Positions 39,501 to 64,000 of a stretch of 64,000 nucleotides of DNA are shown here, piece by piece. The stretch is from Somniosus microcephalus (taxonomy: Eukaryota). A program made the position numbers and the translations under genes. The stretch spans positions 23,932,001 through 23,996,000 of the forward strand of contig CM126212.1 of assembly GCA_052327205.1 (NCBI GenBank), read 5' to 3'. Every line of letters begins with the position of its first letter. The stretch's first letter is position 1. The notes under the pieces were generated by a model. The model did not search any database. It was given only the letters and a program-made list of their open reading frames with translations, and had not been told where the DNA came from.

Positions 39501-42500
39501 AGCACAGAAAGAGGCCCTTCGGCCCATCATGTCTGCGCCGGCCATCAAACCCTGTCTATTCTAATCCCATTTTCCAGCACTTGGTCCGTAGCCTTGTATG
39601 CTATGGCGTTTCAAGTGCTCATCTAAATGCTTCTTGAATGTTGTGAGGGTTCTGGCCTCTACCACCCTTTCAGGCACTGAGTTCCAGATTCCAGCCACCC
39701 TCTGGGTGAAAAAGTTTTTCCTCAAATCCCCCCTATACCTCCTGCCTCTTACCTTGAAACTATGCCCCCTGGTTATTGACCCCTCTACTAATGGGAAAAG
39801 CTCCTTTCTATCTACCCTATCTACGCCCCTCATAATCTCTGTCCCTTTTTCCTGAAGCGAGTGTTCCCCATGGGCAACGGTCAGGAAAGTTAGCCCTTCG
39901 GACTCTTGTTGCTAACTTATAATGGAGTCTTAACACTATATAGTCAGTCAGATCTCCCATCATTATAGTCTTTTGCCCATTAGCTGATTATTATGACACT
40001 GAATGGCATAATGTGCTAGTTCACAGAGAATGGTGCCAATCTGTCTATCCATGGACATCACCAGTCTCGGACAGGAATCATTGTTTATTATTGGAGTTCT
40101 CAATCAATGCAAATTTGAACTGATGTAGTCTTTACGGTAAGCAATGACTCAGGATACTGGACCGGACGTTATGTTTGTGAGTTTCCATCAAATTGGATCC
40201 GATTCACAATATATTTCAATTGCAAAATTGGTGCTTTCAAGTTGAAGATCAATAGATTTTTATAGGCTATCAAGGGATATGGAGCTGAGGCAGGTAAAAG
40301 GAGTTGAGTGACAGATCAGCCATGATCTAATTGAATGACGGAGCACTTTTTCAAGGGGGCTTTGAGGTGTCCTTGAAGCATTTCCTCTGCCCACCTGGGG
40401 CTCTTTTGCTGTGTCGGAGCTCAGAGTAGAGTGCATGCTTTGGGAGTCTTGTATCGGGCATGCAGACGATGTGGCCCGTCCATCGGAGCTGATCGAGCGT
40501 GGTCAAAGCTTCGATGCTGGGGATGTTGGCCTGAGCGAGAACACTGACGTTGGTGCGCCTATCCTGCCAATGGATTTGCAAAAGTTGCAAATCCTTGAAA
40601 AAGTGCAACATCCCCACTGACACCTGGGAATCCCTGGCCCAAGACCGCACAAAGTGGAGGAGAAGCATCCGGGAAAGCGCCGAACACCTCGAGTCTCTTC
40701 GCCGGGAGCAAGCGGAAGTCAAGCGCAAACAGCAGAAAGAGCGCACGTCAACCCAAGCACCCCACCCACCCGCCCACCCCTTCAACCACCGTCTGCCCCA
40801 CCTGTGACAGAGACTGTTGGTCCCGCATTGGACTCATCAGTCACCTGAGAACTCATTTTTAGTGTGGAAGCAAGTCATCCTCGGTTCCGAGGGACTGCCT
40901 AAGAAGAAGAATTAGAATGAATGCAGTTTCCTTGTTGATCCAGTTGCCAAGTGGCCGTTTAATGTTTCCAGGTGCGTCATTCAGCCTTTGTCTTAACAGC
41001 TAGGGGAGAATTTCCAGGCCAGATAAACGATATAAGCTATTGAGATTGAGGTGCCCCTGTTCACACGCTTTCAGCCAATGGTGCAGAGATGCAGGAGGAT
41101 TTTCACTAAAGGAGTACAATGCTGTACCTCGGACATTAATGCATTAGCACTCATTTTCCAGTTGAGATTTATTCTGCAGGAGTTTAACGTCTTGATTGTA
41201 CTACAGTACATAAACAGTGGCAGATGGCTGAGAGTAGGTTACTCATAAACAAGGTCAAAGGGCAAGTGTGCCTTTCAGCCCAAACGGGTGTCAAGTGTTT
41301 TATTTGAATACAACAGCTATCAAGAGTAGAGGAAAGTAATAAAAACAGGCCCAACCAGTTCCCATCCACCACCACCCTCCTCCGCCTGGCTGAACTTGTG
41401 CTCACATTGACCAACTTCTCCTTTGGCTCCACTCGCTTCCTCCAAATTAAAGGTGTTGCTATGGGAACTCGCATGGGTCCCAGCAATGCCTGCCTTTTTG
41501 TGGGATATTTGGAACACTCTTTGTTCCAGTCCTACTCAGGTTCCCTCCCTCACCTCTTTTTCCGGTACATTGATGACTGCATCGGTGCTGTTTCCTGCTC
41601 TTGCCCTGAACTAGAAAATTTCATTCACTTTGCTTCCAATTCCCACCCTTCCCTCACCTTCACATGGTCCATCTCCGACTCTTCCCTTCCCTCCCTCGAC
41701 TTCTCTGTCTCCATCTCTGGAGATAGGCTATTCACAAACATTCACTACAAGCCCACTGACTCCCACAGCTACCTGGACTACACTTCCTCCCACCCCGCTT
41801 CCTGTAAAGACTCTATTCCATTCTCCCAGTTTCTCCGTTTCCGCTGCATCTGCTCTGACGATGCCACCTTCCATACCAGTGCTTCCGACATGTCTTCCTT
41901 TTTCCTCAACCGAGGAATCCCCTCTACTGTGCTTGACACGGCCCTTGACCGTGTCCATTCTATTTCCCGTACTTCTGCTCTCACCCCTTCCCCTCCCTCC
42001 CGGAACCACGATAGGGTTCCCCTTGTCCTCACCTTTCACCCCACCTGCCTCCACATTCAATGGATCATCCTCCGCCATTTCCGCCACCTCCAGCACGATC
42101 CCACCACCAAACACATCTTCCCCTCACCTCCCCTTTCAGCATTCCGAAGGGACTGCTCCCTCTGCGACATCCTGGTCCACTCCTATACAACCCCCAGCAC
42201 CCCTTCCCCTTCGTCCGGCACCTACCCGTGTGATGTGCCTTCAATAACCACAAAACTAGAAGTTATAGACTTTAACAAGTTGGCTTTTAATCACTAAGAT
42301 CAGAGCTAACATCTCAACACACCGACTGGCTCACAGGAATGAGTCATACAGATCCTGAGATCTTTATGTAAGAGAAGTCAGGGGCGGAGCCAAGACCTGG
42401 AACCTTCCAGGTTAGTCAGGAAAGAGAAAGTGAAACTATACACCGTGTGGGGGAGGGTAATATACATGAGTGCAAAACGAATACAGGAAAATACAGGATC

Positions 42501-45500
42501 AAGACAAACAGATTTCATTACATTCACCCCTTCTTTAGATTTAGTCCATCGGGGTGATGTTTCTTAAAAGTTGGTATAAGTGAGTCTGTCAGGAGGTTTT
42601 GCAGTTCTCAGTGATCGGCGCAAAGCTGGTTGGGGTGCCTCTAGGGGAGTGGATTCTGGTTCCTCCGCTGTCCGGGCCTCCGCAGTGTCTTCCAGGTTAT
42701 CTGCAGTGTCCTCCAGGTTAAAGTTGGGTATTGATACCTCCGGGCGTCCTGTCTCTTTGTAGTGTAGGTCTTCCTCGGGTAGTCTCTCATCGTTCTCTCC
42801 GCTCCCCGAGGGAGCGAGGTCTTTTATGGAAACAGTGTCCTCTTGCCCGTCAGAGTATTCGATATAGGCGTACTGAGGGTTTGCATGGAGGAGCTGTACC
42901 TTTTCCACAAGGGGGTCCGTTTTATGGCCTCTCATGTGCTTCCGCAATAGTACTGTCTCCGGAGATGTCAGCCACGCGGGTAGAGATATGCCCGAGGTGG
43001 ATTTCCGGGGGAAAACGAACATCTTTTCGTGAGGGGTAGCGTTAGTGGCTGTACATAACAGAGACCTTATGGAGTGGAGCACGTCTGGGAGGACTTCCTG
43101 CCAGCGGGAGGTCGGAAGGCCTTTTGACTTTAAGGCTAACGTGACAGCCTTCCAAACAGCAGCATTATCCCTTTCCACTTGCCCATTACCCCGGGGGTTG
43201 TAGCTAGTGGTTCTGCTAGTGGCTATCCACTTTGAGAGCAAGAACTGGCGCAGTTCGTCACTCATGAATGACGTCTCCCTATCGCTGTGTATGTAGTTCG
43301 GCATGCCAAACATGCAGAATAGATTACAGAGACACTTGATGACCGTGGCACTGGTCATGTCTGGGCAGGGAATGGCGAAGGGGAAGCGGGAATATTCATC
43401 GATGATATTGAGGAAGTATACGTTATGGTCGGCAGAGGGAAGGGGTCCCTTGAAGTCCAGACTTAGGCGCTTGAATGGCCGTGTGGCTTTGATAAGGCAT
43501 GCACGGTCAGGCCTGTAAAAACGAGGCTTGCATTCCGCACAGATGCGGCAGGCTCTGGTCATTGCCCTGACCTCCTCGATGGAGTGGGGCAGATTGCGGG
43601 ACTTTATAAAATGGTATAGTCGGGTGACCCCTGGGTGACAGAGGTCGTTGTGGAGACCCTGTAATTTGTCCGTATGAATGCTGGCACACATTCCCCGCGA
43701 TAGGGCGTCTGGGGGTTCATTAAGGGGTCCCGGCCTGTACATAATATCATAGTCGAACGTGGATAGTTCGATCCTCCACCTGAGTATTTTGTCATTCTTG
43801 ATTTTCCCCCTTTGTTTGTTATTAAACATGAAAGCCACCGACCGCTGGTCGGTGAGCAGGGTGAAACGTTTGCCGGCTAGGTAGTGTCTCCAGTGCCGCA
43901 CTGCCTCCACTATAGCCTGTGCCTCCTTCTCGACAGAAGAGTGCCTGATTTCAGGTCCCTGAAGGGTTCGGGAGAAGAAGGCCACACGTCTCCCAGCCTG
44001 ATTGAGGGTCGCAGCTAAGGCAAAGTCTGACGCATCGCTTTCGACTTGAAAGGGAATGCTTTCGTCCACTGCACACAGTGCAGCCCTTTCAATGTCCTGT
44101 TTGATACTGGTGAAAGCCTCCCGAGCTTCAGCTGATAGTGGGAAGGACGTCGATTTAATGAGGGGTCGGGCCTTATCAGAGTAATTGGGCACCCATTGGG
44201 CATAATACGAAAAGAATCCCAGACACCTTTTTAAAGCTTTGGGATTGTGTGGCAGGGGCAGTTCCTTTAGAGGGCGTAATCGGTCAGGGTCCGGTCCAAT
44301 TACCCCACCTTCCACCACACAGCCGAGGATACAGAGACGGGTTGTGTTGAAGACACATTTGTCTTCGTTGTAGGTTAGATTCAGCTTTAGGGCAGTTTTT
44401 AAAAATCTCGCAAGATTTAGATCGTGGTCTTGCTGGTTGTGCCCGCAGATAGTGACATTGTCCAGATAGGGGTAGGTAGCTTGTAGTTTATTCGCGTCAA
44501 CCATGCGGTCCATCTCACGTTGGAAGACCGAGACCCCATTTGTTACCCCGAAGGGCACTCTGAGAAAATGGTAGAGGCGTCCGTTCACCTCAAAGGCGGT
44601 GTATGGGCGGTCCTCCGTTCTAATGGGGAGCTGGTGATACGCGGATTTGAGGTCGATAGTCGAGAAGACTCGGTATTGCGCAATCTGGTTGACCATTTCT
44701 GATATGCGGGGTAAAGGGTAGGCGTCCAGCTGGGTATAAATATTAACAGTCTGGCTGTAGTCAATTACCATCCATTTCTTTTCGCTATTTTTAACTATGA
44801 CTACTTGGGCACGCCACGGACTGGTACTGCATTCAATAATGCCTTCCCGCAGGAGCCTGTCCACTTCCGCCTTGATAAAGTGTCTGTCTTCCAGGCTGTA
44901 CCGTCTACTTTTGGTCGCTATGGGCCTACAGTTCGGAGCGAGATTAGCGAATAAAGAGGGCGGGCTGATTTTTAAGATTGATAGGCCACAGACTGTGAGT
45001 GGCGGCTGGGACCCGCCATATGCTAGCGTGACACTTTCGTGGTGGCACTGGAAGTCCAGGCCCAAGATTACATTAACACAGAGTTCTGGCATCACGAGGA
45101 GTTTAAAATCCTTGTAGTCCGTGCCTTTTACAGTCAGTGTTACCACACAGTAGCCCAAAATGTCCGAAGTGTGGGGCTTAGCAGCCATAGCAATTCTGCT
45201 CCGTGTAGGGGCTACCGTTAATGAGTGCCGCTGTACCAGGCTAGGGTGGATAAAACTCTCGGTACTCCCACAGTCAATTAAACATTTCGTTAAATTCCCA
45301 TTTACCTGTATGTCCATCATGGATTTTGTCAATGGGTGTGGCCTGGATTGATCCACCGTGATCGAAGCCACTGTTGGGCCCTGGGCAGCCGTTGAGTCGG
45401 GAAAAGATGGCGGATCCTGCGTGTAGCCAGCAGATGTCTGGCGTACACTTCGTTTACTGGCCTCTGGTATTGGGCCTTCAGGATAGTGATGGCCTCCGTG

Positions 45501-48500
45501 TAAGAGGTGGCGTCCCGGATCGGATGAACGAATAAATCCGATGACTAACGCGAGTAGTCAGTAGACTCAGTTTATCTACCTCGCTAGCGGATGAGGCCCT
45601 CGCGAAGAGTTCGAAGCATTTGAGCCTGTGTCCAAATTGATTTGATGCTTCAGCAGAATGTGAATCCAAGTCCAGACGCTCTGGTTTTAGGAGTCGATCC
45701 ATCCTAGTATTCTTTAGTGATTAAAATTGATGTGCCTTCAATAACCACAAAACTAGAAGTTATAGACTTTAACAAGTTGGCTTTTAATCACTAAGATCAG
45801 AGCTAACATCTCAACACACCGACTGGCTCACAGGAATGAGTCATACAGATCCTGAGATCTTTATGTAAGAGAAGTCAGGGGCGGAGCCAAGAGCCAAGAC
45901 CTGGAACCTTCCAGGTTAGTCAGGAAAGAGAAAGTGAAACTATACACCGTGTGGGGGAGGGTAATATACATGAGTGCAAAACGAATACAGGAAAATACAG
46001 GATCAAGACAAACAGATTTCATTACACCGTGCAAGTGCAGGAGATGCAACACGCCCTTTTACCTCCTCCCTTCCCACTGTCCAGGGCCCCAAAAACTCCT
46101 TCCAGGTGAAAGAGCGATTTACTTGTACTTCTTGCAATTTAGTATACTGTATTCGCTGCTCATGATGCGGTCTCCTCTACATTGGGGAGACCAAACGCAG
46201 ATTGGGTGACCGCTTTGCGGAACACCTCCGTTCAGTCTGTAAGGGTGACCCCGGGCTTCCGGTCGCCTGTCATTTTAATTCACCGCCCCATTCCCACTCA
46301 GACCTCGCCATCTGCGGCCTCTTACATTGTTCCAATGAAGCTCAACGTAAGCTCGAGGAGCAGCACCTCATCTTTCGATTAGGCACTTTACAGCCTTCTG
46401 GACTCAACATTGCGTTCAACAATTTCAGGCCATAACCTCGGCCCCTATTTTTTTCCCATTCATTTTATTTATTATTTATTTTTATTTTTTTCTCTCTCCC
46501 ACATGGCAGCTGTCTTTCATTCTGCCAGTGCCATTCATCTGGAGCCATCTTTTGCTTCTTAACTTGTCCCATTACCATCTTCTTTTGCCTTGCACTATCT
46601 CTTAATGTCTCTTAATCTCTCCTGCCTTCCATCCTATCACAGACCTTCCCTTTTGTTCTTTCCTCCCCTCCCCTCTTTCCCTGCCCCTGCACTTGCTTAA
46701 AAACCTGTTCCATCTCCAGCTTTTTCCAGTTCTGACGAAGGGTCATTGACCTGAAACGTTAACTCTGTTTCTCTCTCCACAGATGCTGCCTGACCTGCAT
46801 TTTCTGTTTTTATTTCAGATTTCCAGCCTCCGCAGTATTTTGCTTTTTGTAGAGGAAAGTAATATTTGCCGTCTGCTCAGAGGAAAGTCCAGGTCATGGT
46901 TACAGATGAGAATATAAAACTTTCATTACACAACAGCACATTGAGTGTACTTACGTGCCCCAGTCACTGAACTGGTAGTGTATGTAATTAGAAACCTGTG
47001 TACTACAAGTCGCTCCTTCCTTCCCAAAATCTTTTTCAATCCTTTCTAAACGGCAAACCTGGTGTCACTGAGTCAACATTTCTACCCTACTCTTTTCAGC
47101 CTTCGCAGAATCCTGCATCTGGGTCTTAGCCTTTACCTCGGTTTCTCAAGAGTAATCAAAGTCTATCGGGGCCATACACATGACCCGCCATCCACAGCCT
47201 CTATCAGCTGGAGATAGATTGTTGGAATACGGAAATGAAATTGTATTAATCTTTATCTGTTGGTTTTTAGGTCTGACGTTCTGCCGGGCCGCATATCTTT
47301 AATGATTTAAATTTACTTAAATGTCTAATATAATGGTCTTGTATTTCTAAGTGGACTGTGTGCAGGCTGGACCAATCATACAGTACGTCCTGTTATTATT
47401 CCCTACAATGTGACACCCACCCCTAAGACCCAAGTTTTACTTCAATAGGGCATTGATTTCACCAGAGAACAATCACAATGAACTGTTTTTCAAAGTGTTC
47501 GTCTCTGGAGATTTGCCTCCTCTCCTAAATGCGATGGTTCGTACTGGGGTACAGTTCCACGGTCACCCTCAGGTACTTGGTCACGTGACCATTCTTTACG
47601 TGTGAGGCGAGATAGTGATTTAACCCAGGTAGGTATCAACGCCAAGGTAGATTCCCCTACCCTCACTGGACACACGTGTGTGCACCTTCTAGCAGGAGTC
47701 ACTGGTTAGCAATCAGGGATGGGCTGATGCCCCCTTCCTAACCCAAGGGTGCTGAGATCAGCTGTAGCCCTCCCACACCAACCCTGGCAAGACTGCTAAC
47801 TCAGGACCACACCTTGAACCCTTCTGGTCTGGGTGACTCAGTGACGGGCTGCCTTCCTCATCTGAGCCATTGAGGGGGCTCTCAATTTTGCAAATGAGTG
47901 CCAAGTTCGACAAAAAGTAATAATAAAATGGATGTGCATGAAAATAATGGATCCTAGAAAAAGAATAGGGATTTTAGGTGGGAAGGATTGACAGAACCAT
48001 AATTCACCATAGCTTTAACACCCGTTCCGTGCAGGCAGGCAAGGAAGGTTTAGGAATATAGGAACATAGCAACGAGAGTAGAACATTAAGCCCCTTGAGC
48101 CTGTTCCGCCATTCAATTAGATCATAGCTGATCTGTACCATAACTCCATCTACCCACCGTGGTTCCATAACCCTTACTACCCTTGTCTAACAAAATCCTA
48201 TCAATCTCAGTTCTGAAATTTTCAGTTGATCTAGCCTCAACAGCTTTTTGGGGGGCAAGTGAGTTCCTGATTTCCACTACCCTTTGTATGAAGAAGTGCT
48301 CTACAACATCACCCATTGAACAGACTAGCTGTAATTTTAAGGTGAGGCACCCTTGTTCTGAATTCCCCCACCTGTAGGCTTGGCCTACTGAAATCCGGCA
48401 AGACCCCTGTGAAAATACACTAACTGACATGAATCAGTCATTCATGAAAAAAGACTTATGAAATAATACTGAGCGGCCTGCGGGTGGCGCTGTCCAGGGA

Positions 48501-60378: not shown

Positions 60379-63300
60379 TGTTGTATGAACACATTCAAGC
60401 ATAGAATCAGGCAGACAGGCTTACAACTGCGATGTTCTCTTTATTCTCTAAAAATGGCTGACTGCTGCTTTCCCGGGTAATTCCCATAATACAATGCGCA
60501 TTACATTACCGTATTTACTGGTGTCAAACTCGCACATTACATTACCGTATTGACTGGTGTCAAACTCGCAATCAATACACGACATCCCCCTTTTCCTTGG
60601 AAACAAACTTGCAGTTTACAAACAGTTGCTTACAATAACACTGCATAACTTATTTGGTTTATAAACTTTTTACAAACTTGTGTCTTACCACACAACTAAA
60701 TAATTCCCAGGTTTAAACATTTAACATCACCCATGCAGTTCTCGCACAGTTTATGTTGTGACATAATCAGATAGTCTTTGGGGTTTTCTTTTAACCCTTT
60801 GAGGTCTGGCTGTATTGGGTATGTCTGACATGTTGGTGTCAGTGGGTATTGCCTGTGTCACAGTGGTATGTGTGTCAGGGTCTACTATACTGTCCTCAGT
60901 CCCTTGTGTTTCCTCCTGTTCATGGAGTGTCTCCTTTGGTCCATTGGTTCTGTGTTTCTTCACAAACGTAGTGTTTCTTGAGTAGCGTGCTCCGTCTGGA
61001 GATTCCACTACTACTTGACTCCCTGTTTTACTCAAAACTTTGTGCGGTGTGGCATTAAAAGGAGTGGTGAACTTGTCCACTTTGTCCTGCCGTACCAGCA
61101 CCGTGTCACCAACTTCCACCTCTGAGTATTGTGTTCTCCGCTGTTCATCTGTGTACAGTTTGGACTTGCCTTTTTGTTCTGCATCGCGGTCACGTACTTC
61201 CATGTCTGCGCGCGACTCTGTGATGTCTGGCAGCTTTCCTCTCATTTTCCATTTAAAGAGCAGCTCTGCCGGGCTCTTTCCTGTCATGGCATGGTCAATG
61301 CTCCTGTACACAGTCACATATTTTCTAAGTTCACGTTTCCAATCTAGTCCTTCTGACTGAGCAATTCTGATTCTCTTCATCAGCGATGCATTCTGGCGCT
61401 CGACTTCTCCGTTAGCCTGAGCCCATTTTGCTGTTGTTTTCAGGTGTTTGATCCCGTTGTTTTCACAGTATTCTTTGAATAATTCAGATCTGAATTGGGG
61501 ACCATTATCAGATTTGCAGGTGATTGGCAAACCATGACGGCTGAAGATTGACTCTAAACTATCAATGATCTTCTCTGTTGTTGTGGAGGTCATGATGTCG
61601 TATTCATAGTAACGACTATAATAGTCAACTACCACAAGAATGGAGTGGTTGGATGGCAAGGGTCCCAGTAAGTCTATAGCTACATCCTGCCAGGGACCCT
61701 CCGGTAATGGTGTTGGTCTCAACGGTTCAGGTGGGTCGGGTCTGGATACTATCTGACAGCCGTGGCACGCTTTACAGTGTTTTTCAGCTGCCTTGTCCAT
61801 GCCAGGCCACCAAACCTTGGTTCTGAGATGATGCTTTGTTCCAACTATTCCCAAGTGTCCTTCATGTGCTAACAACAGGGCTCGTGCGTGTAACACTGTG
61901 GGTAGCACGATGCGTGTTCCCTGAAGAACTAGGTACCCCACTACGCACAGCTCGTTTGCAATTGCTGCATAAGCTTTACAGTTCTCAAAATGTCCATTTG
62001 TGATTGCCTTCCGTACCTCAATCAGCTCTGGGTCGGTAGCAGAGGCTTCCTCCACCTCTCTAGTAGTGAGTGCTTTTGGTGTTGCACTCACAGCTACAAA
62101 TCTCACATATTCATCTGAGCCATGAGACTGTCTCTCCTGTTTTGCTGTATCCCCCAGCAATCGTGACAGTGGGTCTGCAATGTTTTGCTTGCCTGGAATG
62201 TGTATCACCTTAAAATCGTACGGCTGTAATCTAAGTACCCATCTCTCTATACGGGCACAGGGTTTAGAGTGTGGGCCGTATATCACTTGTAATGACTTAT
62301 GGTCAGTTACCAAGTTAAATTTTTGGCCATACACATATGGATGCAGCCTCTCACAAGCCCATACAAGAGCTAAGGCCTCTCTCTCTGTTTGAGAGTATTT
62401 CCTCTCACAGTCTGTTAAACTACGACTTACATAGCATATTGGCACCTCTTGTCCCTGTTGGTCCTGAACTAGTACTGCGCCTAAACCTACAGGACTGGCA
62501 CCTGCTATCACCTTGGTTGGTGCATCCTTATCAAAATATGCTAAAGTGCCAGCTCTGGCCAACTCTTCCTTGAGTGCACTGAATGACTGTCTCTGTTGTG
62601 ATCCAAATTTAAATGGTGTGTCTTTTCTCGTCAGGTGTCGCAGTGGCTCTTATAGCGTTGCAAACTGCAGGATGAATCTGCTACTGTACCCAACGAGTCC
62701 CAAGAAACTCCTCACCTCTGTAGCATTCTCTGGTTCCCGAGCTTCTGCCACCACTCACAGTCTCTCTGCTGTTGGTCCGATGCCCTTTTCAGACAACAGG
62801 ATTCCCATGAAAATCAATCGGTCCATGTTGAATTGGCACTTCTCTGAGTTTAGTGTAAGTCCACTTTCCATTAGTCTGGTCATGACAGCATGCAGGCGTC
62901 TGTCATGCGTTTCCTGGTCGTGTGCATGCACAATAATGTCGTCTGAGATGTTTTCAACACCCTCTATTCCAGCTAAGGCATTAGCTATCTCGTGCTGATA
63001 TTGCTCACTAGCTGAAGATACACCAAATATCAGCCTCTTGTACCTGTATATTCCGTTATGTACTGCAAACATTGTGATTTCTCGTGACTCAGGTGTCAGT
63101 TCTAGCTGGTGATAACCCCATTTCAGGTCTAGCTTACTAAACACCGTCGAGCCATTCATACCTTGGAGTATCTCATCAACGGTGGGGATTGGATATCGTT
63201 CCCTCACTATTGCCTGGTTTGCTTGTCTCATGTCTAGGCATAACCTTACATCCTTATCTGCTTTTGGTACAATAACCATAGGATTTACCCATGGGGTGGG

Positions 63301-64000
63301 ACCAGTTACAGGTTCGATAATGTCCATGTCCCTCAATTGTTTTATTTTGGCCTCTACTGCCCCCCTTAAGTTGAATGGTATACGCCTGAGTGGCTGGGCC
63401 ACAGGCTTCACTTGTGGGTCGATATACAAACTGATCAGTTTTGTGTTCAGCCTTCCTACTCCCTGGAACACCTTTGGATACCGCTGTTCTAGTAGCTGTC
63501 TTACATCTACCACAGCTGAGACATCTGCGCCTATTTTTAAAACTCCCAGTTTCATGGCTGTCTCCCTTCCTAGCAACGGCTCTCCATGGCCTTTAACCAC
63601 AATGAACTCCGCCTGCTCAGTTCTCTTACCTATTGTAATCCCACATGTGAATACACCTTTAACTGACAGTGGTCAGCTAGAAGCATAAGAGAATAACTTT
63701 CTCTCTGTCTTAGGGACATGTGACTGACACTTAATGTGTTCTGACTTTAATCCTTCCCATGTATTCTCATCTATCACATTACTAGTTGCACCCGAATCAA
63801 TTAACATTCTTAGGTTTACTCCCCCCACACAAAAGGTAAGTCTCTCTGTCATGTTACTTCCAGTAACAGCAAATGCAAAGTCATTTTGTTCCTCTATATT
63901 GTTCACACTGTGTTTCTTTGTACCCTTTGTGCGGCATACTTTGGAGAAATGATCCTTTCCCTTGCACTTATGACACGTTTGTCCACGTGCTGGGCATTTC
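60379..64000 (-). mobile_element. Gypsy (Mag-like) LTR retrotransposon; 3' LTR at 60379-60584; continues beyond the window
   Basis: 3' LTR has TG...CA ends and an internal 36-bp tandem duplication; PPT aaggaaaaggggga. A CCHC knuckle lies at about 63930-63990, followed by protease LIDSGA, RT NISDD, RNase H and integrase, split by frameshifts and stops. Confidence 0.93.
60751..63906 (-). pseudogene. Disrupted pol of the Mag-like Gypsy element (ORFs 63673-63906, 62755-63600, 60751-62562)
   Basis: Protease, RT, and RNase H plus integrase motifs in three separate ORFs. Confidence 0.88.

Follow-up and report, generated by a model that had tools for sequence, protein, structure and literature searches.

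Background

Self-priming of reverse transcription has been demonstrated in the fission-yeast retrotransposon Tf1, and is otherwise predicted mainly for chromovirus relatives of that element. Tf1 and Tf2 of Schizosaccharomyces pombe and Tj1 of S. japonicus are described as self-primed Ty3/Gypsy elements in passages of several papers (PMC7175516, PMC4600332, PMC5341516). According to one such passage, the first 11 nucleotides (nt) of Tf1 pair with its site of primer binding (the PBS), and cleavage by RNase H falls between nt 11 and 12 (PMC7175516). The vertebrate sushi group, belonging to the Tf1/sushi chromoviruses, is also reported as self-primed (Butler 2001, as cited in PMC6317226 and PMC4600332). 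In plant elements, self-priming has been predicted from complementarity between the PBS and the long terminal repeat (LTR) for Tcn1 (gypsy) and TAR (copia), as stated in part of PMC6317226. The relevant passages of the self-priming literature thus cover Tf1/Tf2/Tj1, fungal and vertebrate Tf1/sushi elements, Tcn1 of plants and TAR of the copia lineage (PMC6317226, PMC3601003, PMC13524379, PMC6934838, PMC4600332, PMC6238403, PMC7175516, PMC5341516, PMC2864245).

The locus considered here lies in a stretch of 64,000 nt from Somniosus microcephalus (hereafter the window), in which a Ty3/Gypsy retrotransposon occupies positions 46026-42231 of the minus strand. The feature under study, a complementarity between the LTR and the tract that follows it, sits at the 5' end of this element (Table 1).

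Results and discussion

Structure and age of the element

The TG...CA LTRs, the target-site duplication, the polypurine tract and the order of protease, reverse transcriptase (RT), then RNase H and then integrase are those of a Ty3/Gypsy element, and the top match of the element among solved structures is the Ty3 RT (E 3e-42). A chromodomain was not found in the protein of the window copy, in the full-length homologues scanned (5/5), or among the Pfam domains of the best 120 of 1,266 homologues. The gag of the window copy is disrupted by a small indel and, compared with the 4.4-kb siblings, by the loss of about 575 bp.

Table 1. Positions of the element and of its 5' features in the window, in minus-strand order
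Feature	Positions	Strand	Remarks
Target-site duplication CACGG, 5' side	46027..46031	-	
5' LTR, 299 bp, TG...CA	45728..46026	-	boundary set by the 3' LTR and the target-site duplication
GC box CCGCCC, predicted promoter element	45879..45884	-	kept in 30/30 siblings (near-copies, weak evidence)
TATA-like TACATAAA	45860..45867	-	30 nt before the initiator-like A; 25/30 siblings
Initiator-like TCATTCC	45833..45839	-	motif-based; predicted start 45837, 43 nt upstream of the arm
Putative self-primer arm TTAGTGATTAAAA	45782..45794	-	contains ATTAAA (45788-45783); predicted cut 3' of the arm, AAA^GCC
Possible short stem starting at RCC after the arm	45744..45781	-	clade-level signal; weak in the window copy (p 0.55)
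One-base spacer A, LTR end to PBS position	45727..45727	-	
PBS-position tract TTTTAATCACTAA	45714..45726	-	complementary to the arm
gag remnant	45329..45702	-	from the ATG at 45702
997-aa open frame: protease, RT (YLDN), RNase H, integrase	42564..45557	-	
Polypurine tract	42523..42536	-	
3' LTR, 292 bp	42231..42522	-	second arm copy at 42297-42285, without a PBS after it
Target-site duplication CACGG, 3' side	42226..42230	-	

The two LTRs of the window copy are identical save for one 7-bp indel. Among its siblings in the host genome (6.4 Gb searched), 0-6 substitutions separate the LTRs of a pair in all ten that were fetched (10/10), and LTR plus leader are 97-100% identical among the 40 best-scoring ones. 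Since both the LTR pairs and the siblings are nearly identical, the family must be young, and the recent activity proposed in the initial annotation is borne out.

The RT motif of the element (within 44319-44780, minus strand) is YLDN rather than YxDD, with Asn at a normally catalytic position in a clade that is clearly active. YxDN instead of YxDD is found at the first such motif in 83 of the best 120 of the 1,266 homologues.

Some further observations concern the surroundings and the copies of the element. It is inserted inside another repeat, which resumes from 46027 onward, as seen from RNA reads that connect 42225 to 46027. The left flank carries a degenerate RT-like frame (41308-42297, plus strand), for which there was no Pfam match and which, by its motifs, is presumably Penelope-like. 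Tandem LTR-internal-LTR-internal arrays occur in the window family (L034, G000:C26:54693000-54702999), and evenly spaced gag matches suggest tandem arrays in a sister family and a sushi-type family (G000:C1:101244406-101253021; G000:C3:5186516-5200699).

Complementarity between the LTR and the PBS position

The tract TTTTAATCACTAA at the PBS position is the exact 13-nt reverse complement of TTAGTGATTAAAA within the LTR (the arm). The coordinates and the match given in the initial annotation, including the location of ATTAAA within the arm, are therefore correct, and this hexamer is the sole A(A/T)TAAA of the LTR. The absence of a tRNA primer site beginning with TGG was likewise confirmed, as no TGG is present in the window copy from the end of the LTR to the gag ATG at 45702.

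When the LTR (275 nt used) was shuffled with its dinucleotides preserved, a complement of at least 13 nt was reached in 0 of 20,000 shuffles. The predicted helix appears in both the minimum-energy and the centroid folds, with pair probabilities of 0.9-1.0 at 11 of the 13 pairs; the global folding z-scores (0.10 and -1.23) are unremarkable. Of the 30 closest siblings, all keep the 13-mer at the PBS position and 29 keep the arm. Exact pairs of arm, gap and PBS number 2,635 in the host genome, against 0 for a reversed control, and exact LTR-end/PBS junctions of the window type number 2,172. A sister subfamily (G000:C1:41465448-41465527 and others) has the identical 13-nt arm and PBS, with the loop between them largely changed.

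Conservation and covariation in related families

A search with pol produced 1,266 matches, of which the best 120 have identities of 52-78% and are for the most part single-ORF proteins about 1,200 aa long. Sources with a name among these 120 are rays, catshark, sea anemone, Trichuris and woodlouse, those from rays and catshark being the closest (64-76% identity). No relatives of the element were found in the viral contigs searched.

The set of loci consisted of 80 from metagenomes (gag alignment), 120 from the host genome (four gag queries) and the window copy, or 201 in total. Six loci with less than 100 nt upstream were dropped, and the remaining 195 form 32 families at 80% gag DNA identity. 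The PBS was taken to start after CA plus one base, at most 110 nt from the gag start, and the longest perfect complement was sought within 150 nt upstream. For the window copy and four of its siblings, for three further shark families and for three from metagenomes, the 3' LTR independently sets the end of the LTR; for the others, among them most of the metagenome families, this end is assumed from the CA-N-T motif.

Complements of at least 11 nt are present in 150 of the 195 loci and shorter ones in the other 45, and shuffled LTRs gave at least 11 nt in 2 of 3,200 trials. At the family level, a perfect complement of 12-18 nt exists in 29 of the 32 families if the best copy is considered, and in 27 if the first copy is taken with no choice. 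In the other three families (L082, L092 and L159), which are single loci with single or damaged copies, a long complement was not found; L159 has, by eye, a 13-nt pair with one mismatch. The complementarity is thus conserved in the relatives of the element.

Because the 29 families were selected by this criterion, the pairing of positions 1-12 in all of them is given, and the informative part is the difference in their letters. These families are related, so that counts among them are not independent events, and their LTRs and loops are otherwise largely unalike; they have 26 distinct PBS 12-mers, and each of positions 4-12 has 2-4 pair types. When the PBS of one family was set against the LTR of another, at least 11 nt of complement was obtained in 6 of 812 swaps, all within three family pairs of near-identical PBS. 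Four families of the host genome alone have four different matched pairs of arm and PBS. Compensatory covariation across families, which the initial annotation had named as a check on its reading, is therefore strongly present. Where departures from pairing were tabulated, in five large families, most of them are single changes that affect one side in individual copies, such as decay following insertion would produce.

Several details of the arrangement are also shared by the 29 families. The spacer base is A in 27 and G in two. Within 8 nt downstream of the LTR there is no TGG in any of the 29, and in 25 there is none up to the gag match. The arm ends with AAA in 28 families, and GCC or ACC comes next in 26. 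The loop from arm to PBS measures 24-72 nt, and the leader 13-35 nt in most families. AATAAA or ATTAAA is contained in the arm of 20 families and neither of them in nine. The arm-PBS complementarity is a real and strongly conserved feature of a large, recently active clade.

In some families (L084, L094 and L061) the PBS tract reaches or enters the gag ATG, and the helix may also affect the translation start there.

Control elements

Sushi-type elements of the same genome (L277-L280) were found by their DUF4939 gag, with chromodomain matches at the same places in several copies. After the terminal CA of the LTR they have one base and an 11-nt tract complementary to an LTR segment 150-160 nt upstream (4/4 copies). 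A TATA-like motif precedes this arm by about 30 nt, as would be expected from the geometry of Tf1, and the arm contains no poly(A) hexamer. TGG-type controls (three elements with the same one-base spacer) gave complements of at most 6 nt. The complement test can thus tell the two priming types apart, and in both of them the primer register is the one with a single spacer base. The TGG-start PBS of tRNA-primed elements is found in 0 of the 29 families, and in the control elements L281-L283.

These sushi-type elements form two young families (L277-L280; G000 C9, C11 and C8), so that two unrelated designs, both apparently self-primed, occur together in this host. The window also contains a second, unrelated Gypsy (60751-63672, minus strand, continuing in L291), of about 6.5 kb with repeats of about 617 bp, 29% RT-RNase H identity and a long branch. 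Neither a TGG site nor a self-complement was detected at the repeat end that was found.

A possible stem beside the arm

A stem of at least 4 bp that starts exactly at the RCC after the arm (G-U pairs allowed) is found in 23 of the 29 families, after a manual 5-nt shift of the arm end in one family; the dinucleotide null has a mean of 11.9 families and a maximum of 20 in 1,000. At other offsets the same test gave 7-17 of 29 families, the value of 17 being at offset 6. The strict Watson-Crick test is weak (mean 2.6 vs 2.0), and significance is reached only with G-U pairs. These values are no more than suggestive of a conserved stem at RCC. Tf1 is said, in the title of a cited paper, to require a stem-loop resembling the U5-IR.

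Promoter motifs and transcripts

A pair of TATA and initiator (Inr) motifs is found in three of the 29 families, several of the loci being too short, and is located upstream of the arm in each case (by 32, 43 and 78 nt). By these motifs, the arm of the window element is probably internal to R.

RNA-seq data came from two 2026 runs (X9 and X10) of a related organism that is 90-99% alike. The reads span the whole element, including the LTR-PBS-gag junction, on both strands and from many copies. In the same runs there is no pile-up of starts at 45837 or 45794 and no clear poly(A) site. A pile of 11 fragment ends at 45807 appeared in one read listing and was absent from a later one. Polyadenylated retrocopies, which would mark the poly(A) site, gave 0 matches in the two families searched.

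Proposed priming mechanism

The compensatory change across families, the fixed register and the absence of TGG make tRNA-independent priming the best reading of the element. The observed part of the mechanism is the clade-wide occurrence of arm and PBS as perfect complements in a fixed register, namely the CA of the LTR, one base, and the PBS. On analysis of the whole arrangement, we consider it probable that the arm folds on the PBS, that RNase H cuts at AAA^RCC, and that synthesis of a strong-stop DNA of about 55 nt is primed from the freed end.

The steps may be envisaged as follows. Transcription would start near 45837, as the TATA and initiator motifs predict, with the arm internal to R; this start is mildly preferred to a Tf1-like start at the arm. 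During RNA synthesis the arm would pair with the PBS and close a 55-nt loop, so that ATTAAA would be buried only in the 5' LTR, and its burial would also prevent premature polyadenylation there. Cleavage at AAA^RCC, a conserved junction beside the putative short conserved stem, would free a 3'-OH, by analogy with Tf1. The RT would then copy the spacer, followed by U5 and the small part of R that lies between the cut and the poly(A) site, and jump to the 3' R. Plus-strand synthesis would copy the primer, and the arm would thereby re-template the PBS in each cycle, which would explain why arm and PBS change together.

The 5' copy of the arm, its 3' copy and the arm of a second RNA molecule are indistinguishable from sequence alone. 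Priming by the copy in the 3' LTR, for which the RNA would circularise, or by a second RNA molecule, instead of the nearby 5' copy, has in its favour that the 3' R has an identical arm and that the arm, which overlaps the poly(A) signal, is expected near the RNA 3' end; the RNA-seq runs, with no pile-up of starts at either position, leave room for it. It is rather unlikely, however, considering that the 5' copy is just 24-72 nt from the PBS with a predicted pairing probability near 1, and that the promoter motifs place the start upstream of the 5' arm. A different role for the helix altogether, either masking the 5' poly(A) signal or controlling gag translation while some other primer is used, is unlikely. 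Such a role would agree with the hexamer in 20 of the 29 arms, with the predicted unpairing of AUUAAA (1% in the 5' context vs 35-36% in the 3' context), and, for gag, with the PBS arm that adjoins or overlaps the ATG in some families. Nevertheless, the nine families with no hexamer in the arm nonetheless retain both the pairing and an AAA^RCC end, the fixed one-base register to the LTR end would be needless, and the short leader of most families has no space for another primer site. Masking of the 5' poly(A) signal had been suggested in the initial annotation as a further effect of the fold; the fold prediction speaks for this, whereas the nine families speak against its generality. Masking would not conflict with priming, and in the hexamer-bearing families the helix probably serves for it as well.

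The remaining alternatives dispense with self-priming. A host half-tRNA or other small RNA might be the primer and the match to the LTR secondary, since half-tRNA priming occurs in copia lineages (as stated in part of PMC6317226) and the host tRNA screen covered only four distinct tRNAs (Cys and Lys, mostly one tRNA-Cys array), with a best PBS match of 3 nt. This is very unlikely in view of the 26 PBS 12-mers, four of them in one host, each of which matches its own LTR and not those of the others. An inverted repeat arisen by chance, or a copying accident in a single copy, might be thought of for an arm that is A/T-rich and an overall fold no stabler than those of shuffles. It is refuted by the conservation among families, the clade-wide covariation and the genomic pairs, together with the shuffled LTRs, and we assign it almost no weight. 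Self-priming by the nearby 5' arm is therefore the reading retained here.

Phylogenetic position and significance

A quick tree was made of 40 RT-RNase H rows; it is unrooted and has no named reference elements. A branch with an SH-aLRT of 99 divides it: on one side are the window element with three further shark families, 15 rows from metagenomes and 13 homologous proteins, and on the other are the second Gypsy of the window, the two sushi-type rows and five rows of TGG type or similar. Two rows labelled arm-bearing, L068 and L092, lack a long arm in the copy concerned. By this tree the clade does not nest within sushi; being unrooted and free of named references, the tree gives neither a name for the clade nor a separate origin of self-priming. 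The placement in a Gypsy phylogeny envisaged in the initial annotation is thus achieved as far as the separation from sushi is concerned. The supplements of PMC8556966 were a possible source of reference sequences, and no RT motif was found in the part searched.

The full texts searched, which comprise few subscription journals, Repbase Reports or bioRxiv supplements, yielded no metazoan clade outside the chromoviruses whose primer overlaps the poly(A) signal. Repbase-based work has reportedly named further self-primed Gypsy groups, and an earlier description of the clade is therefore quite possible. A self-primed element in a vertebrate is in any case already known, since sushi-type elements are such, and they are present in the same genome. 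The tRNA-independent self-priming proposed in the initial annotation is upheld as the best reading by the covariation.

The widest interpretation is that the elements represent an animal-wide, undescribed clade of non-chromovirus Gypsy with a YxDN RT, and a second kind of self-priming, with an origin separate from that of Tf1/sushi. One internal part of R, folded onto the PBS, would be both poly(A) signal and primer, and a single helix would silence the 5' poly(A) site and be cut at AAA^RCC. In its entirety this interpretation is tentative, and somewhat doubtful. A second large animal clade of this kind would mean that independence from tRNA is common and has probably arisen more than once. 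Self-primed elements would escape control via tRNA supply or 3'-tRNA fragments. Annotation based on the PBS would miss or mislabel them, and young copies of the clade number in the thousands in this host genome alone. The design of the arm would also offer a simple answer to how a poly(A) signal can be used only at the 3' end when the LTRs are identical.

Comparison with known systems

Among named metazoan Gypsy clades, Cigr-1 and MolGy1-16 (as presented in part of PMC6238403) have marine invertebrate hosts that would fit, and the present clade may be one of them; the terms 'PBS' and 'primer binding' have 0 occurrences in the main text of PMC6238403. Tcn1 and TAR resemble the present case in that self-priming was predicted at the level of a clade from PBS-LTR complementarity. 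However, Tcn1 belongs to the chromoviruses, as a relative of Tf1/sushi, and TAR to copia, and neither is a metazoan non-chromovirus.

The sushi group shares with the window element a vertebrate host, the one-base spacer after CA and a self-complementary PBS. In contrast, the sushi-type elements have YLDD, are 31% identical to the window element in RT-RNase H and lie on a separate long branch, and their 11-nt arm is 150-160 nt upstream and without a poly(A) hexamer.

Tf1, Tf2 and Tj1 are similar to the clade in having a PBS after the LTR that is complementary to a segment of the LTR, no tRNA site and an RNase H domain, and the lengths of the duplex are comparable (11 nt vs 12-18 nt in the clade of the shark element). 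Priming in Tf1 was established by experiment, whereas in the clade we infer it from sequence. The primer of Tf1 consists of the first 11 nt of the RNA, while in the clade 24-72 nt separate the arm from the PBS, the arm shares sequence with the poly(A) signal, and an internal position is predicted for it. The likeness to Tf1 drawn in the initial annotation thus holds for the complementarity of the PBS to the element's own LTR and probably does not extend to the geometry, the arm being predicted to lie about 43 nt inside the transcript. What appears to be new is the clade and its geometry: the proposed mode is Tf1-like, and the membership is outside the Tf1/sushi group.
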